Part shown: one piece after another, positions 1 through 44,466 of the stretch | Numbering within the stretch: the first letter of the stretch is position 1 | How the letters are laid out: the number at the start of each line of letters is the position of its first letter | Origin: Patescibacteria group bacterium | GTDB taxonomy: Bacteria; Patescibacteriota; Minisyncoccia; JACQLN01 | DNA length: 64,000 nucleotides | Direction of reading: 5' to 3' | NCBI GenBank assembly: GCA_038065095.1 | Contig: JBBTRR010000004.1 | Coordinates: 15,998 to 79,997, forward strand | Translations under genes and position numbers: made by a program | Notes under the pieces: model-generated | Told to the model about the DNA's origin: nothing | Databases searched by the model: none | What the model saw: only the letters and a program-made list of their open reading frames with translations

Positions 1-2590
1 CATTGTCGCCACCTTTTACCCCAAGAGTTTTTCTGCTTTCAACATTTTCATCCCTGCTTCCCGCTACGGTTTCTTTTGTAGGAAGGAACTCGCCAATAGC
101 ATCAGTTATTTCGCTTTGGTGTGTGCTAATTTTGCCTTCGCGTTCTGTTAATTCAGAGTCTATTTTGTCAACGTTAAAAGGTTTGCTTGTAGTTACTCCC
201 TCTGTAATAGTTGTTATGGTTAAAGATTCAGCCGTGGCCGTGCCTATACTTTTAACTTCTTGTAAGAAGTCGATAGACGGCATTTTACTGATTAAATCTA
301 AAACCCTGTCTATGTTCATCTTATTTATGTCCGATTTTTCTTCTATACCAAATGTTTCTTTTAATTCGTCAAAATGTGAGGTTAGTGTATTTTTTAGCGA
401 TGCCTCTACTAAAATAAGGGTTTTATCAATGATTTCTACCTTTGTTTTAGCTTTGGCCTTTTCGTCAGGCGGTGTTTGATCACTATCTCTTATTTTTTCT
501 AAATTTATTTTCCAAGTATTTCTTGCGTTTCTTTGGCTGTCCATCGCAGTTTTTCTTAAATCCGTCAATTCTGCTTCGTTTTCTGTTTGATCGCGCAATT
601 CTACATAGTTTTGGAGTGCTCCCAAAGCGCCTGTTTCTCGGGCGGCGCTATCGTAATCGGTTAACAAAGAATCGTATTGACTAATCACGGGCAATACAGA
701 ATTCATATATTCCATGTCATCGCCGTCACCCTCAATGTCGTTTTGAAAAGTTGCTAAAAGTTTTTTAGCGTTGTCTATCAATCCAGTGTAGGAGTTAGCT
801 ATGTTAAGGTACAAATTTTTGTTTGATCCCGCTCTGGTTAAAGCTAAAGAAAGATACTCTTTTTTCCATGTTGTAGGTGTGGTTTCTACCAATCCATCAT
901 TTTCTTCGCCTGGGGATCGTGTGAATAATAGTTGGTAGTATATATTTACTGTGTTTGTTACTTTAACAATCTTACCCTCTTTGTCGGTGAATGGCATATC
1001 TTCTTTTTTGGGATGTTCAAAGAATCTAACGTCGCTTATTTTTGAACTACAACTGTTGCGAAGTTGATCGCTTTCCGCCGAGTTAAAACTTTTTAGAGTT
1101 TGAATTATACTATCCCATTTGGAAGCGGTAACTTCGTTTAAAGCTTGATTAGCTAGGTAAGGGCCGGGGTTTTTAGATTCATCGTTAAGCTTTGCTCTTT
1201 CGTATTGAAGGTCAATGATATCATCTGCATCGTTTAGACCTCCGGTAGTTTTAAAATTGAAACCTTCTAATTTTTGTTTAAAAGTGCCTATGGTATTTTC
1301 GCCACGGGTTAATGAGCTTAATTGAGTGGATAATTTTTGGACGTTATTTTGAAAAGATAAAACTCGGTTAAGAAGATCGCTGGAAACCGGGCTTTCAGCG
1401 CCTATTACGGGCGGTAGTATCGCAGCTTGACCGTAGTAACCTGCGCCACCAGCTTTGGTAGCTTGGGTATAAGAGCCTGGCCCACTATTCATTTTAGACA
1501 GACCAGTTCTGGCTGCCCTGTTTACAGCTGCGTCTATTACTGCGTTGACTATCTCCCCAAGTTCTTTTGCGTTTATTAATGGGTCTAGCGATAATTTTTC
1601 TAAACCACCGCCAACCCAATCGCCCACAATACTGCCTGGGGTTATTGTTTCTTCTTCGGAACAGGTAGCTCCTATAGGTATGCCTACTTTGGGATCATAA
1701 TCTTGTATTCTGGATTCTCCTGTGGGGGTAAGACGTACGGAAGGTATGTTTACGTCGGTTATCGGAACTCCATCTATGGACTCACCAAAAATTAATGGCC
1801 AATCATAATTACCATCAGCATCTATGGCTAATAATTTGTTACCAAGATCAACCTCGTGTACGCCACCATACGGAGTGTCTTCAGAAAAAAATATTTTATA
1901 AAATGGAATTTCTATTTTGGTGCATTTTTTTGAGTCCAAGAATCCTTTGCCCGCCGTTATTTTTGCTATGGCTGTGTTTCCAGCTAAAGCTGCTTCCGCG
2001 CCTATAAGTTGCGTAGAAGCTAAGTATGTTCCAGGTAGTGTGTTTCTTGTTTCGTGCAGTTTTAACCAAGCTGTCCAGCCACCATCTTCAAAGTTGTTGG
2101 CGAATGCTTCCATATTTTTTTTGACGTCCGTCCAATTGCAACGCAACTGTTCTTCTTGTAATAATTTGGTTCTGTTTACCAGAAATTGAACATTGGCTTT
2201 AAATGGGGAACAAATATCAGAGCCTTGTTCGAGAAAAAATTTATCTATGGTTGATATCGTTGCAAATTTAATTTCATTTTTAATAAACTTTTTAGGATTT
2301 GTTATAAATCTTGGCTTACCGTTGCCCTGTACCCAATTAACTAAATCGTTTTGAATTTGGATAAGGTATCTTTTTTTTAGAGTTTGAAAAGCGAGATCGC
2401 CCCACTTGCCGTATTTCTTTTTAAAGTCCTCGGCTTTTTTAGCGAGGTCTTTTAGCTTTATATTGAAAGTTACTCCGCCGAATTGAGCTTGAGTTTCTTT
2501 GGGTTGGACAGGGTAAACAAAAGCAAAAATAAAAGACAAAATTATTCCAGTAGAAACGATGGCTACTTTTATATTAGTTGGCTTGTTCAT
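1..2590 (-). CDS. Large secreted hypothetical protein (>860 aa, partial; C-terminus outside the window)
   Basis: Hand translation from ATG at 2590-2588 reads MNKPTNIKVAIVSTGIILSFIFAFVYPVQP... (signal peptide) with no in-frame stop down to position 1. It overlaps the next gene by ATGA. It is absent from the ORF track, presumably because no stop codon lies in the window. The antisense plus-strand small ORFs are spurious. Confidence 0.55.
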   Translation of the reverse strand, partial: MNKPTNIKVAIVSTGIILSFIFAFVYPVQPKETQAQFGGVTFNIKLKDLAKKAEDFKKKYGKWGDLAFQTLKKRYLIQIQNDLVNWVQGNGKPRFITNPKKFIKNEIKFATISTIDKFFLEQGSDICSPFKANVQFLVNRTKLLQEEQLRCNWTDVKKNMEAFANNFEDGGWTAWLKLHETRNTLPGTYLASTQLIGAEAALAGNTAIAKITAGKGFLDSKKCTKIEIPFYKIFFSEDTPYGGVHEVDLGNKLLAIDADGNYDWPLIFGESIDGVPITDVNIPSVRLTPTGESRIQDYDPKVGIPIGATCSEEETITPGSIVGDWVGGGLEKLSLDPLINAKELGEIVNAVIDAAVNRAARTGLSKMNSGPGSYTQATKAGGAGYYGQAAILPPVIGAESPVSSDLLNRVLSFQNNVQKLSTQLSSLTRGENTIGTFKQKLEGFNFKTTGGLNDADDIIDLQYERAKLNDESKNPGPYLANQALNEVTASKWDSIIQTLKSFNSAESDQLRNSCSSKISDVRFFEHPKKEDMPFTDKEGKIVKVTNTVNIYYQLLFTRSPGEENDGLVETTPTTWKKEYLSLALTRAGSNKNLYLNIANSYTGLIDNAKKLLATFQNDIEGDGDDMEYMNSVLPVISQYDSLLTDYDSAARETGALGALQNYVELRDQTENEAELTDLRKTAMDSQRNARNTWKINLEKIRDSDQTPPDEKAKAKTKVEIIDKTLILVEASLKNTLTSHFDELKETFGIEEKSDINKMNIDRVLDLISKMPSIDFLQEVKSIGTATAESLTITTITEGVTTSKPFNVDKIDSELTEREGKISTHQSEITDAIGEFLPTKETVAGSRDENVESRKTLGVKGGDN

Positions 2591-3375
2591 TTTTGCGTGG
2601 CCGAAGTTTTGGCATAATCATTTAAAGTTTGTTGCCAAAAATAAGTTACACTATCCATTTGATTCAAAGTCATAAGTGATTTTAGTGGATCTTCCAAATC
2701 ACCCTTCATAACTTCTACTATTTTTTTTGCGCTAATAACGCTGATCATAAGATTTTTATGAAGATTTAAATATTTAGGTGGAATTTCTATTTCCGACAAG
2801 TTTCTAAAAGAATCCCCAAGGGTATTGGAATAAGAATTTAATTTATTTTGAACTCCCTCGTCGCTCAGTTTTTCCAAATCTATTTCTAAAATATTTGTCA
2901 TAGCTGTTAATATTTTTTCTGTTTCTTTTTTTGTTGAGTCAAAATATTTTTTACGGTTAGCTGATGAATCATTGGAAGTTTTAAGAACAGATGTTGGTAT
3001 TATAGGGAATAAGTTTATTTCGTTAGATTTAAAATATGGCATAACAGTTTCCACTAAAAAATCGGAGCTTTGAACTTTTTGAGCCGAAACACTTGTTAGC
3101 CCAGCCGTATCAATAACTGTACTTAGAAATTCATCTGTTAAATTTTTATCTTCTGGAGCAACGTAGGCGTTTTGATTTTCTTTTTCTTGCTCGTTAAGCT
3201 TTAAAAGCTCGCCTAAAAGTTCATCGCTGGTTTTGCCAGCCGATAATGGAGTAGAAGCTTCATCTACACCATAACTAACAGTTGTTTTTAAAACCAAGTA
3301 AGCGCCACCAAAAATACCTAGCAAGAAAACCAAAACCAAGCCAAACCAAAAGTATTTTCTGGGGTGATTAGTCAT
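2587..3375 (-). CDS. Membrane-anchored hypothetical protein (N-terminal TM)
   Basis: 262-aa ORF with N-terminal hydrophobic helix FWFGLVLVFLLGIFGGAYLVL. Translationally coupled (ATGA) to the downstream large secreted ORF. Confidence 0.5.
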   Translation of the reverse strand: MTNHPRKYFWFGLVLVFLLGIFGGAYLVLKTTVSYGVDEASTPLSAGKTSDELLGELLKLNEQEKENQNAYVAPEDKNLTDEFLSTVIDTAGLTSVSAQKVQSSDFLVETVMPYFKSNEINLFPIIPTSVLKTSNDSSANRKKYFDSTKKETEKILTAMTNILEIDLEKLSDEGVQNKLNSYSNTLGDSFRNLSEIEIPPKYLNLHKNLMISVISAKKIVEVMKGDLEDPLKSLMTLNQMDSVTYFWQQTLNDYAKTSATQK

Positions 3376-3585
3376 TAGGTAAATTTTAACACTATTGACG
3401 GGTTTTTACGTCGTCGAATATATCAATGTTTTCCACAGAAAAATGGCAAAAACATTACTAAACTATTATAAGAAATGTCTAATTTAAAATGATTAAAAAT
3501 TCTTCAAGGCTAAACCTTGGGGATTCTTAAGGTTTAGCCTTAGGTTTAAGATTTTTATCATTAGACCTTGATTAGATATTTGAGC

Positions 3586-4488
3586 TTAGGCATTTGTCAT
3601 TATTTTTTCATATAATGCCTTAAGTGTTTTGATATCTAGGTTCTGGGCTCTAATTTTTTTATCAAATTTAAGTTCGTTAAAGATGTTTTCTAGTTCATCG
3701 GGTTTAGCCGAATTTGTTTTTTTAAGGTTGTTAAAAAGTGTCTGCCGAGGCTGTTTAAATGCTTTTCTTAGAAATTCTATAAATTCGCTAAATTCATTGC
3801 CCTTAAATTCATTATCTTTAGTTCCAACTCTAAACGTGTCATGAGCATACGATCGTAAGCTCGGGACACATAAGTAAGGAGTCAGCCTGATTATCACAGA
3901 GTCTACTTTTGGTTGGGGCCAGAAGTTTTCTTTGCCTACTTTAAACAGAATTTCGGTTTCAGCCATAAATTGTATTAACGAAGAAAGATAGTTCGCCTTT
4001 GGTGGCTGGGCCGTAATCCGCTCGCCCACCTCTTTTTGAACCATAAGTATCAATTCCGAAGGCTTATTAGTGGAAAGCAGGAATTTTTGGATCAGTTTGC
4101 CCGTTAAATAGTAAGGAATATTGGCAATTATCCGATACGGAGATTTGAGAATTTTTTCGTCAAATTTTAAAATATCCCCCTCAATAATTTTTAATTTGCT
4201 TGCCCCGAGCTTGGTCGAGGGGTAATTTTGAGATTTTAATTTCAACAATTCGGTCAAATTATCATCTTTCTCTATCGCTATTATATTTGCTCCAGCTTCC
4301 AATAACGCCATAGTCAGATTTCCTGTGCCTGGTCCAACTTCTAAAATATTCTCACCACTTTTAATTTTAGCTTCTATAATTATGCGTTTTATTATTTCTT
4401 CGGAAACTAAAAAATTTTGACCAAAATGCTTTATTGGTTGTAAGTTTTTTTGTTTTAATTTGGATTTAGTTTCTTTAACTAGTTTCAT
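3586..4488 (-). CDS. rsmA: 16S rRNA (adenine1518/1519-N6)-dimethyltransferase RsmA/KsgA
   Basis: FGQNFL motif, SAM-binding EVGPGTGNLT and VDS..IRL motif typical of KsgA. Contains an in-frame 39-bp palindromic repeat (see 3833-3872). Confidence 0.85.
   Translation of the reverse strand: MKLVKETKSKLKQKNLQPIKHFGQNFLVSEEIIKRIIIEAKIKSGENILEVGPGTGNLTMALLEAGANIIAIEKDDNLTELLKLKSQNYPSTKLGASKLKIIEGDILKFDEKILKSPYRIIANIPYYLTGKLIQKFLLSTNKPSELILMVQKEVGERITAQPPKANYLSSLIQFMAETEILFKVGKENFWPQPKVDSVIIRLTPYLCVPSLRSYAHDTFRVGTKDNEFKGNEFSEFIEFLRKAFKQPRQTLFNNLKKTNSAKPDELENIFNELKFDKKIRAQNLDIKTLKALYEKIMTNA
3833..3872. repeat. 39-bp nested palindromic element inside the rsmA coding region
   Basis: On the coding strand it reads gtgtcccgagcttacgatcgtatgctcatgacacgtt (encodes CVPSLRSYAHDT). 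The first 24 nt are identical to the hairpin at 42974-43013 downstream of trpS. Confidence 0.6.
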
Positions 4489-4500
4489 ATTTTAAATAGT

Positions 4501-4612
4501 CTGGATATAAAAAATCAAAGTGTAAAATGAAAAATGGCAGATCAAGATTTAAAAATTATTTTTCTATCTTTAATATGTCATTTTTATATTTAATTTTTAA
4601 TGTTTTATATCT
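4501..4612. repeat. AT-rich palindromic intergenic repeat, copy 1
   Basis: About 80% identical over about 100 bp to 33181-33300 (aaagtgYaaaatgaMaaat ... atatgtcatttt.atattt.atttttaatgttt.atat). Internally inverted-repeated. Confidence 0.5.
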
Positions 4613-6518
4613 CCAATATTTCCTCTCCCATTTCGTATTCTTCAAACTCCACCAACCTTACTGGTATATCACCCAAAAAACGCGAAGGCAAGGCGGGTTC
4701 ACTTTTACCATAAATAGTTCTGCGGCGAGTAAATACAAAATAAGTCTTTTCTTTGGCCCGGGTTATGCCAACATAGGCGAGTCGTCTTTCCTCTTCCATT
4801 TGGGCAGGTTCAAACATACTTCGGGAATGTGGCAGTAAGCCTTCTTCGGCGCCAATAATAAACACTATAGGAAATTCTAAGCCTTTGGCCGAATGAAGTG
4901 TCATTAAGTTTAATGTGCCGTTTTCTTCGGAGATATCGTCGGCCGAAGTGGTTAGAGTTATTTCTTCTAAAAAAGAATAAAGCCCTTCTTGTGGTTCTAA
5001 CGAATCAAATTTAGTGGCTACTGTGGTAAGTTCTAAAATATTTTCCCAACGAGCCGCGCCTTCTTCGGTGCCATCTAAACAATAATTTTTATAATTTATT
5101 TTTTCTAGTAAAGATTTTATTAGTTCGGAAACCTTTTTATTCTCGGATTCTTTTTTAATTTCGTTAATTAAACTTAAAAAGTTTTCAAACTTAGTGTGTT
5201 TAAAATCAAAAATATTTTCGGTAAAAAGCACTTGGCTTAATGTGGTCTTACCAATACCGCGCGGTGGCACATTAACAATTCTTTTTAAACTAATAGAATC
5301 TTTTTGGTTTTGAATAAATCTTAAATAAGCAATAATATCTTTAACTTCACGGCGTTCGTAAAATTTTATGGCGCCTACCATTCGGTACGGCCAACCTGCC
5401 CTAATAATGGCCTCTTCTATGGCGCGCGATTGCGCATTGGTGCGGTAAAGAATAACAAAATCGTTAAGATCTCGGGCTATTTCTGGTTTGGCTCTTAATA
5501 TTTTTTTAATTTCTTCGGTTACAAAAAAACCTTCCTCCATTTCGTTGGCGGTTTGAACTATCTTAATTTTTTCGCCTGCGCCACGCTCGGTCCATAATTT
5601 TTTTTCTGTTTTAAAAACATTTTTGGCAATAACCGCATGAGCCGCGTCTAAAACATTTTGGGAGCTTCTATAATTTTCTTCTAAAAATATTATTTTTGTG
5701 CCAGAGTAATCTTTTTCAAAGTTAAGCATGTTTCTAAAATCGGAACCGCGAAAAAGATAAATTGATTGCCAATCGTCGCCCACCACACAAATATTTTTAT
5801 GTTTTTCGGCCAGCATTTTTAACAAGGTATATTGAACATGGTTGGTGTCTTGGTATTCGTCTACCAAAATATATTTAAATTTATTTTGATATTTGGCTAA
5901 TACTTCTGGATTATTTTTAAAAACTTTAACCAAAAGAAAAAGTAAATCATCAAAATCTAAAGCATTAGCTTCTTTTAATTTACTTTCATATTTTTCGAAA
6001 ACTTTAGCTATTATTTTTTCTCTAAAGCTACCAGCCCTTTCTGAATAAATCGTGGCATCAACCAACTCATTTTTTTGACGTGATATTGTTGAATATATTC
6101 CAGTGGCTTTAAATTGATCTGAATCTAGGCCAAGCTCGGCAATAATTTCTTTTAATAAAGAAATTACGTCGCTGACATCGTATATAACAAAATTTTTGCC
6201 GTAACCTATATTATGTATTTCGTGCCTCAAAAGCCTGGCGGCAAAAGAATGAAACGTGCCCAAAAAAACAGACATATTTTTGTCGGCGCCTAAAAGATTT
6301 TGAACACGATTTTTCATTTCGCCGGCAGCCTTATTGGTAAAAGTTAAAGCTAGAATATTTTCGGGAGCAATTCCTTGTTCTATTAAATAAGCAATTCTGT
6401 GTGTAAGAGCTTTTGTTTTTCCGCTTCCTGCACCAGCAATTATTAAAACTGGACCATTTATAGTGGTTACCGCTTCTTGTTGTTCTTTATTTAAATTTTT
6501 TAAGATGTCGGACATCAC
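4605..6518 (-). CDS. pcrA: UvrD/PcrA-family ATP-dependent DNA helicase
   Basis: Walker A GAGSGKT, LALTFTNKAAGEM and VDEYQDTN motifs of superfamily-1 UvrD/Rep helicases. Confidence 0.85.
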   Translation of the reverse strand: MMSDILKNLNKEQQEAVTTINGPVLIIAGAGSGKTKALTHRIAYLIEQGIAPENILALTFTNKAAGEMKNRVQNLLGADKNMSVFLGTFHSFAARLLRHEIHNIGYGKNFVIYDVSDVISLLKEIIAELGLDSDQFKATGIYSTISRQKNELVDATIYSERAGSFREKIIAKVFEKYESKLKEANALDFDDLLFLLVKVFKNNPEVLAKYQNKFKYILVDEYQDTNHVQYTLLKMLAEKHKNICVVGDDWQSIYLFRGSDFRNMLNFEKDYSGTKIIFLEENYRSSQNVLDAAHAVIAKNVFKTEKKLWTERGAGEKIKIVQTANEMEEGFFVTEEIKKILRAKPEIARDLNDFVILYRTNAQSRAIEEAIIRAGWPYRMVGAIKFYERREVKDIIAYLRFIQNQKDSISLKRIVNVPPRGIGKTTLSQVLFTENIFDFKHTKFENFLSLINEIKKESENKKVSELIKSLLEKINYKNYCLDGTEEGAARWENILELTTVATKFDSLEPQEGLYSFLEEITLTTSADDISEENGTLNLMTLHSAKGLEFPIVFIIGAEEGLLPHSRSMFEPAQMEEERRLAYVGITRAKEKTYFVFTRRRTIYGKSEPALPSRFLGDIPVRLVEFEEYEMGEEILEI

Positions 6519-6540
6519 AAAATTATAGCAGATTATTAAT

Positions 6541-6725
6541 TTTCAATTATCAATTCACAATTATCAATGAATTTTCAAGGTCTTAATTTTCAAACCCATT
6601 TGATAATTGAATCATTGTTTGACCCCCGTAGTCTTGCCGTGCCACTCCATAGCCTTTGGCGAAGGGCGGGCGAAGTGGGAGAGTTTGATTGAAAATTGAA
6701 CATTGTAAATTGAAAATTTGAATCA
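6541..6725. repeat. Composite palindromic intergenic element, copy 1, with nested GC-rich insert
   Basis: Left arm caattatcaatgaattttcaa and right arm tgaaaattgaacattgtaaattgaaaattt are identical to the copy at 31785-31872. They flank a about 60-bp GC-rich insert (6634-6694) whose reverse complement matches the tRNA-Pro 5' leader at 58185-58225. Confidence 0.55.
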
Positions 6726-6965
6726 ACTGGATCTGTGGACTACCTGATTGACCCAATGTCTCAAAAAAGCTATCATTTACCTATAACCTTGCCTTGCAGG
6801 GTTTTGTGCTTAAATAAGCTTTCTAAGCCAATATTCAGCTATTTTGGGGCTAGAGTAATTATCTAGCCAGATTAGTTTAGTAGAGGTCAATATCCGATTA
6901 GTATTTGGTATAAAATTTTATCTTTTTACGAAAACATTCTCGCTTCTTTAAAGAGTAAGCGAGTT

Positions 6966-8084
6966 TTGTTCTTAAGCTTTTCATTATCTAGAAAACTGAT
7001 ATACACATCAGTTTTTTTGTTTGTCCTATCTTTTGGATCAATTTTATTTTTTTCTGGTAATAATTCTGCTAGTTTAGATTCGGATAATAAGAGTATAGTA
7101 GAAGAAATAGATACTGGGGATGAAAGTTTTTTAAAAAAGATAATACCTCAAGAATCTCCGGTAACCTCGGCTATTTTATTTGCTGGTAATTTAGAAAGTA
7201 GAATTAGCGGAGTATTTCGTGGAACAAATTCAAATGGGGTTTTGGGTGGTCCAGAGGATAGTGCGAGTAATTTAGAAACAGCCGGCAATGCTTTAGTAGC
7301 ACAGGGTTCGATATTGGCTATAATTCCAGCAAACACAGATAGTTTTGTATCAGACGGAAACATATTTACCTACGAAATTGAAACTGGAGACAGTTTGGAA
7401 TCAATCGCTAACGATTTTGGTGTTTCAGTTGATACATTACTTAGCGCTAATAACTTACCCAAAGGAACTAAACTAAAAGTTGGCGATAAACTTTCAGTTT
7501 TACCGGTTGATGGTGTTAGACACACTATAAAATCTGGAGACACTATTAAATCTATCGCTATTAAATATAATGCCGATGAAGTTAGAATAATTGCTTTTAA
7601 TGATTTACCCGACGATGGCAAAATTGTTACAGGACAAATTTTAACAATTCCTGGTGGCGAATACCACGTACCAATAAGTATAAGGTATGCGCCGTCTCAA
7701 AATCCATCTGCCGAAAGTTTGCCGATTATTACAGGTTACTATGGTCGTCCATCTAATGGGCGAATAACATTTGGTTTACACAGGTTCAACGCTGTAGATA
7801 TTGGTGGACACGAATGGTGCAATACCCCTCTCTACGCTTCAGCCGCAGGCATTATTATTACTGCCGATGCTCAAGGTTGGAATGGTGGTTATGGTAAATA
7901 TATAAAAATTTCGCACGATAATGGCACTATTACTTTGTATGCCCACGCTTCGCAACTTTTAGTAAGCGAGGGCCAGAGTGTTAAAAAAAGCCAAACCATA
8001 GCTTTGATGGGTTCTACCGGCAATACTACCGGTTGCCATGTTCACTTTGAAGTCCGTGGCGCTAAAAACCCTTTCGCGAACTAG
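6966..8084 (+). CDS. LysM-domain M23 family metallopeptidase (cell-wall hydrolase)
   Basis: N-terminal TM/signal, two LysM repeats (GDSLESIANDFGVSVDTL; GDTIKSIAIKYNADE), C-terminal M23 core with HxH (GCHVHFEV). Confidence 0.8.
   Translation: MFLSFSLSRKLIYTSVFLFVLSFGSILFFSGNNSASLDSDNKSIVEEIDTGDESFLKKIIPQESPVTSAILFAGNLESRISGVFRGTNSNGVLGGPEDSASNLETAGNALVAQGSILAIIPANTDSFVSDGNIFTYEIETGDSLESIANDFGVSVDTLLSANNLPKGTKLKVGDKLSVLPVDGVRHTIKSGDTIKSIAIKYNADEVRIIAFNDLPDDGKIVTGQILTIPGGEYHVPISIRYAPSQNPSAESLPIITGYYGRPSNGRITFGLHRFNAVDIGGHEWCNTPLYASAAGIIITADAQGWNGGYGKYIKISHDNGTITLYAHASQLLVSEGQSVKKSQTIALMGSTGNTTGCHVHFEVRGAKNPFAN
8054..8084. repeat. 31-bp direct repeat, left copy (3' end of the M23 gene)
   Basis: tccgtggcgctaaaaaccctttcgcgaacta is identical to 8742-8772; the two copies bracket the higBA-like cassette. 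Confidence 0.7.
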
Positions 8085-8115
8085 TTTGTAAAATATATTT
8101 ATTGAACAAACATAA

Positions 8116-8430
8116 ATGGAGGTTAAAATTTTTGACGATAATTTAGAAAAGTTCATAAAATCGCTGGAAAAACCAACTATAGCCAAAGTGCTGCGCATAA
8201 TTGATCTCTTGGAACTTTTTGGAAATAAATTGAATATGCCCCACAGCAAAAAAGTAGCTGTTCATCTTTTTGAATTAAGGGTAAGAGGCATTCAAGATGT
8301 GAGAATTTTATATGCTTTTAATAAAGGAGAAGTAGTATTACTCCACGGCTTTATAAAAAAGAGCAGTCGTATTCCTAAAAAAGAAATAGATATTGCCTTG
8401 AGTAAGTTGAATCGCTTGACTCGTGTATAA
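8116..8430 (+). CDS. higB: HigB-like toxin (Gp49/DUF891-type RelE/ParE superfamily)
   Basis: 104 aa; ...HLFELRVRGIQDVRILYAFNKGEVVLLHGFIKKSSRIPKKEIDIA is typical of the phage Gp49-like toxin family. Followed by an XRE antitoxin. Confidence 0.7.
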   Translation: MEVKIFDDNLEKFIKSLEKPTIAKVLRIIDLLELFGNKLNMPHSKKVAVHLFELRVRGIQDVRILYAFNKGEVVLLHGFIKKSSRIPKKEIDIALSKLNRLTRV

Positions 8431-8451
8431 CGTATAAGTTATAGTGGAATT

Positions 8452-8730
8452 ATGAAAAAATACTCTGTATTAAAAAAACAACTTCTTAAAGATAAAATTG
8501 TAAAAAAGGTCTACGATGATTTAGGGTCGGAATTTAAGGTTATAGCTCTGTTCATTAAAAAGCGGTTAGAAAAAGGTTTAACTCAACAGGAACTAGCCCG
8601 TCGGATTGGCACTAAACAATCGGCTATTGCCCGCTTTGAATCTGGCACTTATAATCCCACTATAGATTTTTTAAATAAAGTTGCCTTAGGCTTAAACACT
8701 CGCATTAAGATTTCAATAGATTTTAAATAA
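8452..8730 (+). CDS. higA: XRE-family HTH antitoxin (HigA-like)
   Basis: 92 aa; HTH LTQQELARRIGTKQSAIARFESG immediately downstream of the toxin gene (HigBA order). Confidence 0.7.
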   Translation: MKKYSVLKKQLLKDKIVKKVYDDLGSEFKVIALFIKKRLEKGLTQQELARRIGTKQSAIARFESGTYNPTIDFLNKVALGLNTRIKISIDFK

Positions 8731-8741
8731 ATATCTTTGTA

Positions 8742-8772
8742 ATCCGTGGCGCTAAAAACCCTTTCGCGAACT
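8742..8772. repeat. 31-bp direct repeat, right copy
   Basis: Identical to 8054-8084. Here it is preceded by taa and followed by aataa, consistent with being the ancestral 3' end of the M23 gene. Confidence 0.7.
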
Positions 8773-8786
8773 AAATAAATTTAATT

Positions 8787-8826
8787 AAAAAAACCGCCCC
8801 GATCCTATATCGGGGCGGTTTTTTGT
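8787..8826. terminator. Bidirectional Rho-independent terminator
   Basis: aaaaaaaccgccccgatcctatatcggggcggtttttt: GC stem flanked by an A-tract and a T-tract between convergent genes. Confidence 0.6.
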
Positions 8827-9087
8827 TTACCGATACAAATGGCTGTGACTATTAACAGCTACAAAAATAGCCACGTCTTTTGTATCTTGTTTATATATAG
8901 CTCTTAAATCGCCGCTTATGTTTATGCTTCTATAGCTAGCATATTTACCCTCAAGAGGGTGATTATTTAGAATGGGGTTAAATATGTCTAAAAGAAAAAT
9001 CGTCAATCTTTCTTTTAGCTTAGATTGCTCGTTCGCTTTTAGTTTCTGAAATTGCTTTTCAAAGTTTCTATGAAAACGAATAATCAT
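8827..9087 (-). CDS. RelE/YafQ-family mRNA interferase toxin
   Basis: 86 aa; ...HPLEGKYASYRSINISGDLRAIYKQDTKDVAIFVAVNSHSHLY is the RelE/YafQ C-terminal signature. 4-bp overlap with the upstream antitoxin. Confidence 0.7.
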   Translation of the reverse strand: MIIRFHRNFEKQFQKLKANEQSKLKERLTIFLLDIFNPILNNHPLEGKYASYRSINISGDLRAIYKQDTKDVAIFVAVNSHSHLYR

Positions 9088-9362
9088 AAAGTATTAAGAT
9101 ACTTTATGGCTTTGTCGGCCGAATCAAAAGATGGCGACAAATTCTTTTTTGTTTGAATGTCTTTTTCTATGCCACCTAAAAGACGCTCAAATTCAGGCGT
9201 CATTTGAGGAATACTAGAGAAATAAACTTCACGACTGCGAATGAAGTTTCTTAAAGCCGCGTTTATTACATCGCTTAAAGATAAGCCTAAATCCTTAGCT
9301 AGTTTCTGAACCGTATTTTTTATTTCTTTTTCGGTTTTAATGTTTATTATAGTTTTTGACAT
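9084..9362 (-). CDS. RelB/DinJ-family antitoxin
   Basis: 92 aa, RHH-like N-terminus (LSDVINAALRNFI), immediately upstream of and overlapping the toxin gene. Confidence 0.65.
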   Translation of the reverse strand: MSKTIINIKTEKEIKNTVQKLAKDLGLSLSDVINAALRNFIRSREVYFSSIPQMTPEFERLLGGIEKDIQTKKNLSPSFDSADKAIKYLNTL

Positions 9363-9402
9363 ATAACTAAAGTATATACAACAGTTAGGTATGAGTCAAT
9401 CT

Positions 9403-10920
9403 TTAATTTTGCGGTCTATATTGCAACGCTTCGTTAATATGATCGGGCGCAATATTTTCCGATGCTGAAAGATCAGCAATAGTGCGGGCGAGTTTTAAAA
9501 CTCGGTGGTAACCGCGGGCCGAAAGATTATATTTATAAACCGCGGTTTTAATAAGTTCTTGGCATTTTTCGTCTAGCCGGCAAAATAGTTTTATATCTTT
9601 TAACCGCATTTCGCTATTAGTAGCAAAGCCAAAATTTTTAAATCTTTCACGTTGGATTTTTCTGGCACTTTCCACCCGTTCTCTAATCTTATTTGATGCT
9701 TCGGCTACACTTTCCGAGGCTAATTTTTCGTATTGTACTCTGGGCACCTCCACGTGAAGGTCTATCCTGTCTAAAAGAGGTCCAGAGATTTTTCTTTTAT
9801 ATTTTTGAACTTGAAAAGGTGTGCAAACACATTCTTTTTGTGGGTCGTTTAAAAAACCACAAGGGCAGGGGTTCATAGTGGCGGTTAAAATAAATTTAGC
9901 GGGGAAAGTTAAACTACCTTTTACACGCGAAACTGTAACAGTGCCGTCTTCTAAGGGTTGGCGCAAACTTTCTAAAACATCGCGGTTAAATTCGGGAAAT
10001 TCGTCTAAAAATAAAACACCTCGGTGCGATAAAGTTATTTCACCTGGTTTAGGCACACTGCCCCCGCCAACTAAGGCCGCGGCCGAAGACGTATGATGTG
10101 GCGATCTAAATGGCCGTGTTCTTATTAACGGTTCTTTGTGGCTGATTAAACCAGCTACCGAAAAAATTCTAGTGCTCTCTAAAATTTCTTCTTTTTCCAT
10201 AGCAGGTAATATAGAAATTAAAGCTCGAGCTAGCAATGTTTTGCCGGATCCCGGGGGCCCGCTCATTAGTATGTTGTGATTTCCTGCCGCAGTAACTTCT
10301 AGGGCGCGCTTGGCAAAATCTTGGTCTTTAATATAGGCAAAATCGTGTTCGTATTCTTGCTTAATTGGCGCGAGAATAACTGGTTCTATGGGTTTTATTA
10401 TTTTTCTTTTAGAAAAATGTTCGCAGGCTTCGGCTAGGTTTTTTAGTGGAAAAATATCTATACCATCAACTAGTCCAGCTTCCTTAGCGTTTTCTTCGGG
10501 TACATAAAGTTCTTTTGTGCCAAATGTTCTTGCCATAATAGCAATTGGCATAACACCAAAAACAGGTCTAATAGAACCGTCTAATGCGAGTTCGCCTATG
10601 AATATTTTACCTTCGGGGTCAAAATTAATCTGCCTAGAAACTAAAAGATAAGCCAAGGCTATCGGGAGGTCATATTTTGGGCCTTCTTTTTTTAGATCAG
10701 CTGGAGCCAAATTAACAATTACTCGCTTATTAGATTGATTTGGTGGAATTAAACCCGTATTTTTTATAGCAGCCGAAACCCTATCTTTAGCTTCTTCTAT
10801 GGCTTTATCTGGTAAGCCTACAATATTAAAAACATGTAGACCTCGGGCAAGGTCTACCTCAACTTCTACAGGTTGAGCATCTAAGCCAACCAAAGCCGCA
10901 GAATATATTTTACTAGGCAC
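9403..10920 (-). CDS. comM: YifB/ComM family Mg-chelatase-like AAA+ ATPase
   Basis: N-terminal Lon-like domain; Walker [15 protein letters not shown]; C-terminal Mg-chelatase ChlI-like region. Confidence 0.85.
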   Translation of the reverse strand: MPSKIYSAALVGLDAQPVEVEVDLARGLHVFNIVGLPDKAIEEAKDRVSAAIKNTGLIPPNQSNKRVIVNLAPADLKKEGPKYDLPIALAYLLVSRQINFDPEGKIFIGELALDGSIRPVFGVMPIAIMARTFGTKELYVPEENAKEAGLVDGIDIFPLKNLAEACEHFSKRKIIKPIEPVILAPIKQEYEHDFAYIKDQDFAKRALEVTAAGNHNILMSGPPGSGKTLLARALISILPAMEKEEILESTRIFSVAGLISHKEPLIRTRPFRSPHHTSSAAALVGGGSVPKPGEITLSHRGVLFLDEFPEFNRDVLESLRQPLEDGTVTVSRVKGSLTFPAKFILTATMNPCPCGFLNDPQKECVCTPFQVQKYKRKISGPLLDRIDLHVEVPRVQYEKLASESVAEASNKIRERVESARKIQRERFKNFGFATNSEMRLKDIKLFCRLDEKCQELIKTAVYKYNLSARGYHRVLKLARTIADLSASENIAPDHINEALQYRPQN

Positions 10921-11024
10921 ACATATATATCAAATATCAAAGATTAAAAATCAAAGTTATAATTCAAATTTTAAATTTTTATTTTTGATATGTAATTTTG
11001 ATATTTTGTTTTTAATTTTTGATT

Positions 11025-11378
11025 TTAATTAGTATGTTGGGTGCAGTTTCTGGCCGAAGGATTTGCACGTAAGCGTTCTATATCTATTGCTGTTCCGCAT
11101 TTTTCACATATACCAAAAGTATTATTTTTAATTTTATCTAAAGAATCGTTAATATCTCGCAACCTTGTTTCTAGGCTGTGTTCCATTGGTAAACGAGTGA
11201 TATATTCTGTTACCTCTTGAGAATTTTCATCCCAACCATCGCCTAAGTTTTCATAGGTGGTATCCCAATCGCCTTTTATATTTTTGTCGGGGTGAGCAAA
11301 AGAAGTTAGCTCCTCGGTTAAGGCTTTTCTCTCTTTTTCTAAAAGTAATCCCAGTTCTTTTATTAATTCTTGATTCAT
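11025..11378 (-). CDS. DksA/TraR-family C4 zinc-finger protein
   Basis: C-terminal CEKCGTAIDIERLRANPSARNCTQH (CxxC-x17-CxxH/C). Confidence 0.65.
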   Translation of the reverse strand: MNQELIKELGLLLEKERKALTEELTSFAHPDKNIKGDWDTTYENLGDGWDENSQEVTEYITRLPMEHSLETRLRDINDSLDKIKNNTFGICEKCGTAIDIERLRANPSARNCTQHTN

Positions 11379-11582
11379 TTACTCATTATATTTTATTAGT
11401 TTGAATAAGAAAAGCCTAGTAACGTACATTCGTATGCGTTACTAGGCAAAGCTCCGTAAGTTCAACTAGCTTGAGTTACTGGGGGCTGATTTGCCATGTT
11501 TTATATATTGTGCTTATATATACAAACATCAGACACGGATTGAACCTTACAAAATAACCCCCTATAACAAGGAGTTTGTAGC

Positions 11583-12476
11583 ATGAAACGAGCTGCTTTG
11601 ATCGCCTTTTTGGCGATTTTCACAGTTTTACCTAGGTTGTCTTTTGCCTTTGTAACTAGAGGAGATACCGTCTATTTTGATGGTTACAGTAGTTGGGCTT
11701 ATACATACAAAGACAATGCTGGGAGTGATAATCATTTGACTCTCAATAGGCTTTGGCTGAATAGCTATAAAGATATCAATCTTCCTTATGAAGTTGGTCG
11801 TTCTTATATTTTAATGGCCGCATCTTTGGAAGATAAGGTTGTAAAGATTCAAGAGTCCAGCTTAAATTGGGCTGTAGCCTTTGGTCCAGTTAACAAAGTA
11901 ACTATTGGCCGATTTGCTCCACCATTTGCGGAAGAGTGGCTGAAAGATCCTGACCAACTGAACTTGGTTAGGTATTCGTCAATTTTTGATCAGTTAGTCT
12001 ATCGAGATGATGGCGCGCAAATTGATTTATCAAAAAAAAGATTGCGTGTATCGTTCGCATCTTTTTTAGGTGAACGTAGTGGTGGAGTTGTGCGTGAACA
12101 GAAAGACGGCAAAGCCCACTTGTATTCAAAGGCAGTTTTTATTCTGCCCGGGAGCATTGAGTTTTCTGGTAGTTACAGATGGAGCCGTACTCGGAATAAT
12201 CTTTGGGCGGCTTCTGGGAAATGGCAGAAAAGTAATTTCAGAAGCGTCTCCTTTGAGGTAGTTGGTTTTGGAAAAGATATTCAGTGGTTTGCTAATTACG
12301 GCCAAAAAATCGCAACTCACTTTTTAGTTACCGCGAGATACGAAGATTTAAAGTATCAGTCGAACAGAACTATTCTTGGGGTTAGGTTTTATACGAGGCA
12401 TATTGATATAAAAACTTCTACAGTATTTTCTGATCCACCTGTTTGGATTTCATCAGAAGTGTTGTTTCGATTCTAG
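11583..12476 (+). CDS. Secreted hypothetical protein (signal peptide, beta-rich)
   Basis: N-terminal signal MKRAALIAFLAIFTVLPRLSFA; alternating hydrophobic pattern; ends ...VLFRF. Confidence 0.5.
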   Translation: MKRAALIAFLAIFTVLPRLSFAFVTRGDTVYFDGYSSWAYTYKDNAGSDNHLTLNRLWLNSYKDINLPYEVGRSYILMAASLEDKVVKIQESSLNWAVAFGPVNKVTIGRFAPPFAEEWLKDPDQLNLVRYSSIFDQLVYRDDGAQIDLSKKRLRVSFASFLGERSGGVVREQKDGKAHLYSKAVFILPGSIEFSGSYRWSRTRNNLWAASGKWQKSNFRSVSFEVVGFGKDIQWFANYGQKIATHFLVTARYEDLKYQSNRTILGVRFYTRHIDIKTSTVFSDPPVWISSEVLFRF

Positions 12477-12479
12477 ATT

Positions 12480-13981: not shown

Positions 13982-13982
13982 T

Positions 13983-15440: not shown

Positions 15441-15519
15441 ATCTTAAAAGTTTGGTATCCGCCCAAGACGGTTTTTCTATAACTTTTTAATTTTGACTTG
15501 TAATTTTTCCTTTTAAATT

Positions 15520-19521: not shown

Positions 19522-19553
19522 TCTCATTTTGTCGCTCGAGCGAAAAGATGAGA
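19522..19553. repeat. CTCGAG-centred palindrome, copy 2 (divergent promoter region)
   Basis: tctcattttgtcgctcgagcgaaaagatgaga, between the divergently transcribed YraN-like and PaaX-like genes. Confidence 0.6.
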
Positions 19554-19653: not shown

Positions 19654-20220
19654 ATGGATAAAAATAGTTTTAATAAATTAGGTCCAACTAAAAAGAAAAT
19701 AATATTATTGCTTGCTGGGGGAGTAGGGCTTTCTTTGGCAGGCACGCCCAAGAAATATTTTGGTGTTATTAAAAGTGTAGCAGATGAATGGAATAAAATT
19801 AATGAGACGTCTCTTAAGCGGGCTATAAAGTCGCTTTATGAATCAAAATTGATAGAGGCTAGGGAACATGAAAATGGTTCTATGACTGTAGTTCTTTCGG
19901 AAAACGGCCGTAAAAAGGCCTTAACTTATAATATGGATACTATGGCCATTAAAAAACCCGCCATTTGGGATGGTAAATGGCGAATGGTTATGTTTGATAT
20001 TCCTAATAAAAGAAAAAAGGAAAGAGATGTATTGAGAAATATGCTAAAACAACTTGGGTTTATAAAATATCAAGAAAGCGCCTTTATTTTGCCTTACGAA
20101 TGCAAAAACGAGGTAGATTATGTGGTTGAATTCTTTAACCTCCGCCCGCACGTTAGGTTTTTAGAAATAAGTAAATTTGATGATGACTTAGCTTTAAAAA
20201 ACAGATTTGGGTTGGTTTAG
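19654..20220 (+). CDS. PaaX-like winged-helix regulator
   Basis: N-terminal wHTH-like region; C-terminal WDGKWRMVMFDIPNKRKKERDVLRNMLKQLGFIKYQESAFILPY resembles the PaaX C-terminal domain. Confidence 0.45.
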   Translation: MDKNSFNKLGPTKKKIILLLAGGVGLSLAGTPKKYFGVIKSVADEWNKINETSLKRAIKSLYESKLIEAREHENGSMTVVLSENGRKKALTYNMDTMAIKKPAIWDGKWRMVMFDIPNKRKKERDVLRNMLKQLGFIKYQESAFILPYECKNEVDYVVEFFNLRPHVRFLEISKFDDDLALKNRFGLV

Positions 20221-20239
20221 TGGTCTAGGTTTTAACTAA

Positions 20240-20271
20240 TCTCATTTACTCGCTCGAGCGAGAAGATGAGA
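20240..20271. repeat. CTCGAG-centred palindrome, copy 3
   Basis: tctcatttactcgctcgagcgagaagatgaga downstream of the PaaX-like gene, followed by a second terminator hairpin acctccgaagggttacccttcggaggt. Confidence 0.6.
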
Positions 20272-20351
20272 AGGGTATTAAAAATTATTTAAAACCTCCG
20301 AAGGGTTACCCTTCGGAGGTTGATGAGATTAATGGTTGAAATGAATATTTT

Positions 20352-25769: not shown

Positions 25770-25770
25770 A

Positions 25771-27445: not shown

Positions 27446-27448
27446 AAT

Positions 27449-41010: not shown

Positions 41011-41016
41011 TTTTAT

Positions 41017-41922: not shown

Positions 41923-42936
41923 ATGAAACGTATACTTACAGGCGATCGGCCTACAGGCAAGCTCCATTTGGGGCATTATGTAGGCACACTAAAAAATCGT
42001 ATAGCGTTACAAAACGAATACGAGACTTTTATTATTCTTGCCGATTTACATACGCTTACTACAAAACCGGAAAAAGAAAATATCCAAAAATTAAACGAAA
42101 ACATTCGCCAGTTGATGTTAGATTACTTAGCTTGCGGATTAGATCCCAAAAAAGTTATTTTTTATAGGCAATCGCAAGTTCCAGAAGTCGCCTATCTTTC
42201 TTTGCTATTTTCAATGCTAGTTACAACTTCTCGCTTAGAAAGATTACCAACCTTAAAAGACGTAATGCGAGATTTAAAAATAGATAATGCTTCTTTGGGT
42301 TTATTATCTTACCCTGTTTTACAATCAGCCGATATTTTAATGGTGCGTGCAAATCTTGTACCTGTTGGAAAGGATCAAGAATCGCATATAGAACTTACGC
42401 GCGAAATTGCAAATAAATTTAATAAAATGTATCCCTCGACTGCACTCGGGACAGGCGGGGAAGTTTTTCCAGAGCCCGAAGCTTTAATTGGCAATGAAGC
42501 TATAACTTTAATTGGAACAGATGGCAAAGCCAAAATGTCTAAGTCGCTTGGCAATTGCATTTATCTTTCCGATAGCGCCGAAGAAGTTAAAAAGAAAGTT
42601 ATGGGTATGTATACCGACCCTAATCGCGTACATGGTAATGAACCCGGCCAAGTGGAAGGTAATCCAGTTTTTATTTACCACGATCTTTTTAATACCAATA
42701 AAGATGAAGTTGCCGATCTTAAAGAACGCTATCAAAAAGGCACGGTTAAAGATGTAGAAGTTAAAGAAAAATTAGCTATAGCGATAAACAACTTTTTAGA
42801 ACCTATTAGAACCAAGCGAACCGAGTTTGAAAATAAGCCAGAACTTATAGATCAAATACTTTTAGATGGCACCGCTCGCGCCCGTGCCGAAGCCCAAGAA
42901 ACTTTGAAGTTGGTTAAAGAGGCCATGGGGTTTTAA
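41923..42936 (+). CDS. trpS: Tryptophan--tRNA ligase
   Basis: HIGH-type TGKLHLGH and KMSKS motifs; overall class Ic TrpRS pattern. Confidence 0.9.
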   Translation: MKRILTGDRPTGKLHLGHYVGTLKNRIALQNEYETFIILADLHTLTTKPEKENIQKLNENIRQLMLDYLACGLDPKKVIFYRQSQVPEVAYLSLLFSMLVTTSRLERLPTLKDVMRDLKIDNASLGLLSYPVLQSADILMVRANLVPVGKDQESHIELTREIANKFNKMYPSTALGTGGEVFPEPEALIGNEAITLIGTDGKAKMSKSLGNCIYLSDSAEEVKKKVMGMYTDPNRVHGNEPGQVEGNPVFIYHDLFNTNKDEVADLKERYQKGTVKDVEVKEKLAIAINNFLEPIRTKRTEFENKPELIDQILLDGTARARAEAQETLKLVKEAMGF

Positions 42937-42973: not shown

Positions 42974-43013
42974 AACGTGTCCCGAGCTTACGATCGTAGA
43001 TTCGGGACACGTT
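42974..43013. terminator. Long nested palindromic hairpin downstream of trpS (repeat family shared with the rsmA insert)
   Basis: aacgtgtcccgagcttacgatcgtagattcgggacacgtt, a 12-bp outer stem plus inner tacgatcgta palindrome, followed by tttaatt. Confidence 0.6.
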
Positions 43014-43560: not shown

Positions 43561-44466
43561 TTATTCTTTTCTTCTGCGTGCGTGGAAGGCTTTGTGAATT
43601 TCTTTTAAGCCTGTGTCTGTAACGTGGGTGTATATTTGAGTTGTGGTTATATTGGCATGTCCCAGCATGGCTTGAACCGAACGTATATCGGCACCATTGC
43701 GTAATAAATCAGTTGCGAAAGAATGGCGCAATGTATGCGGGTGAATATCTTTTACAATTCCGGCTTTGGTTGCATAGTGTTTAACAATTCTTTGAACGGT
43801 TCTAGGTGTAATTCTTAAATCTTTATTCGCTTTTTGTTTTTTATCACTTATTCTTCTAGCGAATAGTGCTTCACTCATATCTTCTCTTTTAGCAATATAG
43901 TTTTCTAAAGAACGCCTGGCGGGTTCAGAAAGAAAAACCACGCGAATTTTATCGCCTTTACCGCGTACTGCAAACTCGCCACGTTTTAAATTAACTGATT
44001 CTTTATTTAACGAACAAAGTTCGGAAACACGTAATCCCGTAGAAAACAAAAGTTCTAATAAGGCTTTGTCGCGTAAGTTTTTAACAGAATTACCATTAGC
44101 AGAATCCAACAAGCGCTCTATTTCTTCGTTTTCTAAAAAGTCTATGTGCCTATCGCCAATTTTTCCCAATTCTATTTTGTCGGCGGTTAAAGTTTTTACA
44201 TCGCGTTTGGCTAAGTATTTTAAAAAATTACGTAAAGCAATTAAATGGTAGGCTTGTGTAATTTTTTTTAATGGGGGAGTTATTCGGTTTAGATGTAATC
44301 TATAGTTTCTAACTACATCGTTGGAAATACTAGAAGGTGAATTAATTTTGGCGTAATCAAAAAAGCGTCTTAGATAACGATCGTAATTTTCTATCGTTTT
44401 TATTGAACGGTTTTTTTCTATTTCTAAATAATTTAAATAATCGGTGAATAAAGATTTTATAGTCAT
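43561..44466 (-). CDS. xerC: Tyrosine site-specific recombinase (XerC/XerD family)
   Basis: C-terminal HTLRHSFATDLLRNGADIRSVQAMLGHANITTTQIYTHV contains the R..H..R..Y catalytic residues. Confidence 0.85.
   Translation of the reverse strand: MTIKSLFTDYLNYLEIEKNRSIKTIENYDRYLRRFFDYAKINSPSSISNDVVRNYRLHLNRITPPLKKITQAYHLIALRNFLKYLAKRDVKTLTADKIELGKIGDRHIDFLENEEIERLLDSANGNSVKNLRDKALLELLFSTGLRVSELCSLNKESVNLKRGEFAVRGKGDKIRVVFLSEPARRSLENYIAKREDMSEALFARRISDKKQKANKDLRITPRTVQRIVKHYATKAGIVKDIHPHTLRHSFATDLLRNGADIRSVQAMLGHANITTTQIYTHVTDTGLKEIHKAFHARRRKE

Follow-up and report, generated by a model that had tools for sequence, protein, structure and literature searches.

A probable low-copy palindromic repeat family in Patescibacteria, with copies in-frame inside rsmA and just past genes

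Two copies of a palindrome in one stretch of Patescibacteria DNA

We analysed 64,000 nt of contig JBBTRR010000004.1 from a Patescibacteria group bacterium (hereafter the window), which carries one copy of a palindromic element inside the gene rsmA and another just past the gene trpS. The host of the first copy, rsmA/ksgA (3586..4488, minus strand), encodes a 16S rRNA adenine dimethyltransferase of 300 amino acids (Pfam RrnaAD, E 2.8e-46). Its best sequence matches in the PDB are solved KsgA/RsmA structures, and a 100% identical protein carries the name RsmA in a Patescibacteria metagenome-assembled genome (MAG). The element lies at 3833..3872 on the same strand and encodes C-V-P-S-L-R-S-Y-A-H-D-T, with its centre CGA|TCG read as Arg-Ser. 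Along the coding strand, positions 3872..3835 are TGTGTCCCGAGCTTACGATCGTATGCTCATGACACGTT, with the in-frame translation CVPSLRSYAHDT.

The second copy (AACGTGTCCCGAGCTTACGATCGTAGATTCGGGACACGTT, 42974..43013, given without strand) is intergenic and begins 38 nt past the stop codon of a trpS-like class I Trp/Tyr tRNA synthetase gene (41923..42936, plus strand; Pfam tRNA-synt_1b, E 7.8e-78). An A run and a T run flank it (TAAAACGTG...CACGTTTTA, 42970-43017), with TAAAA before the stem and GTTTTAATT after it. Convergent with trpS is a XerC/D-type tyrosine recombinase gene (43561..44466, minus strand; Pfam Phage_integrase and Phage_int_SAM_1), whose 3′ end is about 550 nt from the intergenic palindrome; it is given here as context only.

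The initial annotation of this DNA, made from the letters alone, had claimed that a palindrome inside the rsmA open reading frame (ORF) is shared with the hairpin after trpS and is translated in-frame directly past a conserved motif. Both points were borne out: the peptide begins directly past KVDSVIIRLTPYL, and when the 22-mer shared by the two copies was searched on both strands with up to 3 mismatches, only the two window sites were found, while 0 of 100 dinucleotide-preserving shuffles gave any match. The dimensions needed correction. The shared stretch is real, but its longest exact run is 22 nt (GTGTCCCGAGCTTACGATCGTA), with 23 of the first 24 positions matching, rather than the 24 identical nucleotides first given, and the quoted rsmA string has 38 nt rather than 39. 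The decamer TACGATCGTA occurs in the window only at these two copies. An unfiltered covariance-model search of all 64 kb returned two strong matches (rsmA, 59.4 bits; trpS, 56.5 bits), followed by a generic terminator hairpin at 25.7 bits. The same search found no third copy in the window; its match at 40979-41017 has nothing but CCCGA/TCGGG in common with the element and is an ordinary terminator. Chance and assembly artefact were both excluded as origins, since the shuffled sequences yielded no match and independent assemblies also contain the element.

The two copies differ in their state of preservation. The rsmA copy is partly decayed, having one T.T mismatch and two other mismatches, and is the most decayed among the intact rsmA copies (predicted RNA fold -17.9 kcal/mol, z -4.5); the trpS copy folds at -27.9 kcal/mol (z -8.3). 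The inner arms of the trpS copy are chimeric, the left one reading GAGCT as in rsmA and the right one GATTC as in a copy from a related contig (L083a; L and P numbers are our own labels for loci and orthologs). Together with the 22-nt identity of the window copies, these chimeric arms suggest exchange between copies.

The rsmA copy is an insertion in an interdomain linker

Compared with Thermus and Bacillus KsgA, the window's RsmA has 15-23 extra residues between the methyltransferase and C-terminal domains. Of the 65 orthologs aligned, about 14 of the closest (57-68% identity) have the motif x-S-[LIM]-R-S-[YQH]-[AS]-[HR]-x at the insert site; of the remainder, a few have a decayed peptide and all others are gapped. 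The ortholog alignment that the initial annotation had proposed as a check identifies the residues as an insertion, with gaps in the KsgA structures and in most orthologs, including close sisters. Alignment thus shows the rsmA copy to be extra sequence in the interdomain linker. In an AlphaFold2 model of RsmA with a mean predicted local distance difference test score (pLDDT) of 86.5, residues 208-225, which hold the insert, fall below 50 and form the sole low-confidence segment; the linker insert is accordingly modelled as disordered.

The insert is unevenly distributed among close relatives. Ortholog P0003 carries it and its sisters P0005, P0008, P0009 and P0011 do not; P0013 carries it and its sister P0019 does not. 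On a quick neighbour-joining tree of the RsmA orthologs the carriers fall into two clades, which requires several losses, several gains, or both. Judged by this distribution, the insertion is old and clade-shared rather than recent. Comparing an empty allele (L015) with a filled one (L009), we found 33 nt replaced by 6 nt, the difference being essentially the palindrome itself.

The order uvrD/pcrA, rsmA, hypothetical genes and type IV secretion-like genes (TrbL, PrgI, TraC, VirB4-like) is common to window positions 1-16000 and to L008, L009 and L015, at 75-85% nucleotide identity. In many relatives a 23S_rRNA_IVP gene (PF05635, four-helix-bundle/bAvd-like) lies directly downstream of rsmA, whether the palindrome is present or not (L011 11147-11539, L015 7613-7972, L017 1509-1862, L020 1441-1803, L021 3361-3732); the window has no such gene downstream of rsmA.

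DNA symmetry is retained while the peptide varies

We compared the rsmA DNA of 11 orthologs, 10 of which encode an intact peptide. In all 10 of these the DNA is a palindrome centred on CGATCG, and the arms differ between lineages yet stay complementary; the decayed copy (L022/P0014) is only partly palindromic. The arms read ACGTCTCACGAGC...GCTCGTGAGACGT in L017 and L019 and TTTAGCATGAGC...GCTCATGCTAAA in L009, while the L011 copy (TGTATACCGAGCCTGCGATCGCAGGCTCGGTATACA) is a perfect 36-mer and the L020 copy (ACATACAGCGAGCATGCGATCGCATGCTCGCTGTATGT) a perfect 38-mer. Orthologs sharing the residues without the palindrome in their DNA would, according to the initial annotation, have spoken against its proposal; we observed the opposite, a palindrome retained with compensatory changes.

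Across a 25-sequence alignment of the element, 89.8% of cells are paired and both sides have changed in 12 of 18 pairs. The covariation score was reached by 0 of 500 shuffles, and control alignments slid out of register pair at 20-44%. The codons tell of the same constraint. Where two lineages have an identical residue that can be encoded by four or more codons, they also share its codon in 93% of pairwise comparisons inside the element and in 35% outside it, and the contrast for all residues with two or more codons has a Fisher p of 5e-43. Because the flanking genes of the compared genomes are about 75-85% identical, this is a contrast between the element and its own gene. The codons AGC, CGA and TCG are frozen in 9 of 9 rsmA lineages. 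These comparisons indicate that the DNA, and not the peptide, is what is conserved in the rsmA element.

G.U pairs are scarce in the alignment (9 one-sided against 71 two-sided changes), and where coding copies are mismatched, the sense strand shows C.A. Both observations lean towards symmetry at the level of DNA rather than of mRNA.

Coding copies share one reading frame and avoid its stop codon

Read in the rsmA frame, the canonical element is AGC TTA CGA TCG TAA and ends in a stop. Every coding copy avoids it, either with TAT, which leaves a T.T mismatch (Leu/Tyr), or with a re-paired combination (ATA/TAT, CTG/CAG, ATG/CAT or GCG/CGC). All three coding sites use a single frame, with a codon boundary at the palindrome centre.

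The second of these sites is also in rsmA. The L008 gene has, in its C-terminal domain, an additional decayed copy (STSQRSPAHAK) that is unique among the orthologs (10736-10783, GTTAGCACGAGTCAGCGATCGCCAGCTCATGCTAAA, read as V-S-T-S-Q-R-S-P-A-H-A-K). Empty orthologs already have the residues A-K that the outer GCTAAA of this copy overlaps, a hint of microhomology where the copy was inserted.

The third site is in a family of membrane proteins of about 520 amino acids that is unrelated to RsmA and holds the element in the same frame. In L074 a perfect copy (RITSIRSYARDT) occupies a short loop between hydrophobic segments of a 538-amino-acid protein, for which no Pfam match was found. Variants of the peptide occur in its ten closest relatives; in P0126, P0131 and every more distant relative the loop is two residues long. 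Around the central Arg-Ser of this family, 38 of 40 mirrored residue pairs are compatible with reverse complementarity, compared with a mean of 11 and a maximum of 22 in shuffles. From the peptide SIPRARSRSRYI of P0128 we predicted a palindrome beforehand, and the DNA, TATACCGAGAGCGCGATCGCGCTCTCGGTATA, proved to be a perfect 32-mer with a new inner stem. Arg-Ser, encoded by CGATCG, is kept in 10 rsmA lineages and in 10 membrane-protein orthologs.

Intergenic copies lie just past genes

One genome per species was scanned, which gave a single real match: in another Minisyncoccia MAG (L001), a perfect 40-mer whose arms are those of the window starts 7 nt past an RNase T-like gene. A metagenome scan with the pattern CGANNNTACGATCGTANNNTCG, which fixed TACGATCGTA and CGA/TCG, matched at least 116 loci. 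With other repeat families and chance matches set aside, the matches listed include 15 family copies in 14 contigs resembling the candidate phyla radiation (CPR), and their canonical form is a perfect palindrome, ...CGAGCTTACGATCGTAAGCTCG.... The canonical element is a perfect palindrome of 36-40 bp, AACGTnTCnCGAGCT-TACGATCGTA-AGCTCGnGAnACGTT, which we describe by model R1 with the core GAGCnTRCGATCGYAnGCTC. The initial annotation had called for counting copies beyond the two loci; that count extends the palindrome to other sites in related Patescibacteria contigs and to a second gene family.

Among the matches listed there are about 14 intergenic sites in total. Of the 13 copies that could be classified, 12 lie just past the end of an ORF, several of them between convergent genes, and one sits between divergent genes. 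In L085 the palindrome starts at the stop codon of a 728-amino-acid ORF (2497-4683) that joins arginase-family and deoxyhypusine synthase domains. Copies L083b and L124 occupy an orthologous position after a metallo-beta-lactamase (MBL)-fold gene, and their arms differ by one paired change. The hairpins of most copies are predicted to be very stable (-25 to -32 kcal/mol, z -7 to -8).

Several contigs hold more than one copy. In L091 (29% GC), three copies with a common imperfection (CACACCATCCTACGATCGTAGGTTAATGTG) and one perfect copy occur within 460 nt between two genes (3716-3757, 3778-3819, 4066-4107 and 4128-4175); since three of them share the same imperfection, units are copied. The related loci, roughly 280 kb in all and each fetched for one copy, contained about 3-4 extra copies, which amounts to about 1 per 70-90 kb. 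The window's two copies share an arm type, as do those of L017 and L025 (same assembly, same coverage). L083 and L008 each hold two arm types, and concerted evolution is therefore only suggested.

The same scan brought up sequences of other kinds. Three AT-rich contigs, L054 (1-2294), L025 (1-1500) and L050, have the element within ORF-free stretches whose GC content is 54-67%. These stretches hold terminator-like and promoter-like sequences of their own and resemble unannotated structured RNAs; at Rfam gathering thresholds nothing was found in them. A very abundant and apparently unrelated repeat family with the same TTACGATCGTAA core (L023, L024, L026-L030 and at least about 80 further loci, from samples Ga0056115, Ga0056116 and Ga0209568) consists of nested palindromes (TTTTCGAAAAATCTTATGACGAATTTACGATCGTAAATTCGTCATAAGATTTTTCGAAAA) in 39-nt tandem modules with TAACTGA heptamers. 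On a 62% GC contig, L041, CGAGTCTACGATCGTAGACTCG occurs four times (1531, 7353, 9652 and 11371), and each time an AAGGAG ribosome-binding site follows about 15 nt downstream; judged by this placement, the sequence looks like a gene-start-associated operator, possibly of a phage. The abundant family and the GC-rich family share only the pattern-fixed decamer core with the element, and we treated them as separate from its family.

Maintenance and function of the element

We consider it probable, though well short of certain, that the window sequences belong to a low-copy, old family of palindromic repeats in Patescibacteria (Parcubacteria/Minisyncoccia), similar to repetitive extragenic palindromic sequences (REPs) and to Rickettsia palindromic elements (RPEs). 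The alignments show a CGATCG centre that is invariant and arms that vary by paired, both-sided steps. As mapped on the contigs, most copies are intergenic and lie just 3′ of genes, often between convergent ones, and a few are intragenic, where translation shows them read through in one frame as a hydrophilic loop or linker insert of 12-13 residues. Comparison of lineages shows that symmetry has outlasted long divergence where the site is fixed, in two genes and at one intergenic location or more, and that copies are occasionally gained and lost. In our reading of that comparison, the rsmA linker insert was acquired in a clade ancestor and lost again in several lineages, and it has remained palindromic.

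According to the mechanism that we propose, intergenic copies, when transcribed, would form an 18-bp hairpin with a GAUC loop and would end or stabilise transcripts from both directions. New copies would arise rarely, by copying or by gene conversion, as the second L008 rsmA copy and the 22-nt identity in the window may illustrate. Palindromy would be kept by arm-on-arm conversion (quasipalindrome template switching), by selection on a hairpin or cruciform, or by both, and a putative factor would read the invariant CGATCG centre. Template-switch mutation is a documented route by which quasipalindromes, or inverted repeats, are perfected (PMC7202029). Arm-on-arm conversion would yield paired changes without intermediates, but it does not account for an invariant unpaired centre, which suggests a putative reader. 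The 3′ placement, the stable hairpins and the A and T runs of the trpS copy resemble the window's ordinary bidirectional terminators and fit the role proposed for REPs. From its position, shape and flanking A/T runs we infer a terminator role for the trpS copy.

Several observations weigh against a family of repeats with this origin and role. No target-site duplication was visible on comparing the filled L009 and empty L015 sites, and no transposase or other enzyme was linked to the element; REPIN/RAYT systems have a single-copy RAYT gene (a Y1 HUH transposase) flanked by the repeats, but about 30 ORFs run against Pfam included no Y1 transposase, and no RAYT was seen. The single frame used at all three coding sites is the one that needs removal of a stop codon. 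The copy number, 2 per 64 kb, is far below that of classical REPs or RPEs, a figure that rests on the 64-kb window and the 280 kb or so of related loci and not on complete genomes. Among the metagenome matches, conservation of TACGATCGTA and CGA/TCG was partly imposed by the pattern that fixed them. As for termination, a consensus terminator scan did not call the trpS copy, no T run follows the upstream gene in L001, L083b and L085, and a terminator could dispense with the conserved CGATCG centre. The scarcity of G.U pairs and the C.A mismatches fit symmetry held at the DNA level and not at the mRNA level.

Alternatively, the palindrome may have a function as a DNA site, either in double-stranded form or as an extruded cruciform or hairpin. 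A host protein would read it through the invariant centre and the symmetric arms, and copies would be kept at fixed places, genes included, because they are needed there. We regard this as unlikely, though it deserves to be taken seriously. The centre CGATCG is invariant even in copies that were not chosen by the search pattern, namely those of the 10 rsmA lineages and 10 membrane-protein orthologs; the symmetry looks like a DNA-level property, with its few G.U pairs and its C.A sense-strand mismatches; orthologous sites, in two genes and past the MBL-fold gene, retain their copies; and palindromy is restored even at the expense of amino-acid changes. The reader might be a methyltransferase, a protein that organises the chromosome, or a structure-specific nuclease or recombinase, but no candidate protein was found, and because the arms vary between lineages such a reader would have to co-evolve with them or recognise structure only. 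Sister lineages also lose the rsmA copy without visible replacement, and the placement 3′ of genes, the new copies and the duplicated imperfect copies look more like a repeat family. We give an equally small chance to the stronger form of this idea, in which the palindrome is more than tolerated selfish DNA and cells actively keep it symmetric: a putative factor (nuclease, recombinase, methyltransferase, or replication or segregation protein) would read the CGATCG hairpin or cruciform, and its action, or arm-on-arm conversion, would force codon pairs to evolve in mirror image.

The remaining explanations each account for a narrower part of the data. A cis-regulatory structure in the rsmA mRNA (for example an RNase III site, an internal attenuator or a pause in translation between the two domains), with the trpS copy as a secondary duplicate, would explain why the same rsmA position is conserved with compensatory changes and why the predicted hairpins are very stable in most lineages. 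It is improbable given that an unrelated membrane-protein gene and many intergenic positions keep the same element, that several close orthologs do without it, that the window copy has decayed to -17.9 kcal/mol, that sense-strand mismatches are C.A and not G.U, and that no T run follows the hairpin inside rsmA. The Xer-type gene about 550 nt from the trpS copy raises the idea of a dif-like or att-like site for a XerC/D-type recombinase, with crossover in CGATCG. Half-site exchange would then have produced the trpS copy, which joins an rsmA-type left inner arm to a right inner arm of another type, and dif sites used by a single recombinase are palindromic. We think this more improbable still: tblastn found no Xer homolog near any other copy, there are several copies per contig, some of them in essential genes, where dif is single-copy, no GC-skew switch occurs near 43 kb, and the element's arms, at 18 bp, exceed the 11 bp of Xer arms in dif sites. 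We set the idea aside because Xer adjacency is confined to the window. Least credible of all is selection for the peptide S-L-R-S-Y-A-H/R at the protein level, with the palindrome in the DNA being incidental. The peptide does recur in many RsmA orthologs, but the same DNA occurs at non-coding positions, close orthologs lack the peptide, and the segment is modelled as disordered. Moreover, synonymous codons are frozen (AGC/CGA/TCG in 9 of 9 lineages) and the peptide varies freely while mirrored codons stay complementary. Protein-level selection on the peptide is contradicted by the frozen codons, by the palindrome that was predicted and then found, and by the mirror-codon test.

Other candidates and other features of the window

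Further candidates were rejected. A known RNA family was excluded, there being no Rfam match at gathering score. A viral origin was dismissed when viral contigs, scanned twice, showed no palindromes other than unrelated or chance ones, and a known phage or plasmid sequence when blastn gave no match in phage and plasmid collections. One arm type resembles CIRCE (TTAGCAC...GTGCTAA arms); we took this likeness to be coincidental, given a 7-nt difference in spacing and the different arms of other lineages. Restriction avoidance is not evident for the centre of the element, as GATC occurs at 0.83 of expectation in the window and CGATCG is found 9 times against 3.7 expected.

The window also holds a second palindrome family, centred on CTCGAG, with copies at 19522-19553 (TTCTCATTTTGTCGCTCGAGCGAAAAGATGAGA) and 20239-20272 (ATCTCATTTACTCGCTCGAGCGAGAAGATGAGAA), one on each side of the ORF 19654..20220 (plus strand). 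A HepT/MNT toxin-antitoxin pair, made up of adjacent genes for a HepT-like RNase and a Pol-beta-type nucleotidyltransferase (MNT), lies at 25335-26193 on the minus strand. Gene strand switches within 27150-27580, from minus below 27.2 kb to plus above 27.5 kb; GC skew is steadily positive from there, and gyrA starts at 28640. Judged from these features, the switch near 27 kb may be a replication origin. Pursuing the idea of an origin-proximal, parS-like site, we found neither dnaA nor parB among 10 neighbouring ORFs tested at about 27 kb.

Significance and comparison with known repeat families

Short palindromic repeats that are translated are known from Rickettsia and a few other bacteria. 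To our knowledge they have not been described for the CPR, whose small genomes are thought to hold few repeats. Many lineages keep the present element in two unrelated genes, in each gene at one and the same position, with arms that change together and amino acids that change in mirror-image pairs. It offers a natural system for asking what keeps a coding palindrome perfect, be it selection on a hairpin, a protein that reads it or template-switch conversion, and it shows how such elements add disordered loops to conserved enzymes. Model R1 marks a family of 3′-end hairpins and in-frame inserts that the annotation pipelines for Patescibacteria MAGs currently leave unflagged. If the palindrome were an actively kept site, a constraint at the DNA level would be writing 'palindromic peptides' into essential proteins across many Patescibacteria lineages.

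RPEs are palindromic repeats inserted in-frame (PMC10969869); RPE-1 is about 150 bp long with 44 copies in one genome, and there are ten RPE families. Like RPEs, the element occurs both between genes and in-frame in unrelated genes, adds a tolerated peptide, and has insertions common to related species (PMC10969869; PMC3733652). The RPE trait of in-frame copies in unrelated genes alongside intergenic ones is found here at two sites in rsmA, in the membrane-protein family and at the intergenic sites. Unlike RPEs, which are about 100-150 bp long, present in tens of copies per genome and found in Rickettsia, the element is 36-40 bp long, occurs twice per 64 kb as a single family with a CGATCG centre, and belongs to Patescibacteria; it is set apart from RPE-1 to RPE-10 by length, copy number and host, and not by sequence comparison. 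The initial annotation's proposal of an element analogous to RPEs holds for a family with in-frame and intergenic members, but the low copy number and the old, clade-shared insertion depart from it.

REPs lie mostly downstream of ORFs, and some are intragenic, in-frame and translated (PMC3733652). The element resembles them in its size class of 20-40 bp, its hairpin potential and its location mainly downstream of ORFs, between convergent genes or genes of the same direction, with some copies wholly inside ORFs. Tagged REPs, imperfect palindromes, have a stem of 8-9 bp, a loop of 4-5 nt, an unpaired GTAG or CGTC tag at one end and a short unpaired tail, and occur in tens to hundreds of copies, often as dimers. 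In contrast, the element has a stem of about 18 bp or is a perfect palindrome, its ends AACGT...ACGTT are paired and symmetric, and its copies are mostly single and few. The CGTC of the L017/L025 type sits within the stem and not as an unpaired REP tag, and within the 64-kb window and the related loci we did not see the high copy number of tagged REPs.

Ordinary bidirectional terminators are similar in having a hairpin just past genes, and some copies of the element have A/T runs, matching the A-run/stem/T-run layout of the window's terminators; they differ in that the element's stem is about twice as long, its centre is conserved in sequence across lineages, copies are also found within ORFs, and for many copies the relevant side has no T run. 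The pneumococcal SPRITE is a terminator-like repeat family whose hairpin also lies just past genes. Cyanobacterial HIP1 (GCGATCGC) is an 8-mer present thousands of times per genome. It shares with the element a CGATCG/GATC-centred core found in coding and non-coding DNA, and the copies of L011, L020 and L139 read GCGATCGC; unlike HIP1 the element is a 36-40 bp unit of low copy number, a comparison made by description only. Nor does it behave as dif, a single site of 28-30 bp at the terminus and outside genes, given two copies in 64 kb, one of them inside rsmA.

Searches with Rfam gave gathering-score matches only to tRNAs in the window and none in 11 related loci, and at the two element sites only generic hairpin matches far below threshold. 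A literature search turned up neither the core decamer in this sense nor a description of palindromic repeats in Patescibacteria. In its behaviour the element matches RPEs and intragenic REPs, and the mirrored evolution of its codons is the part that is unusual.

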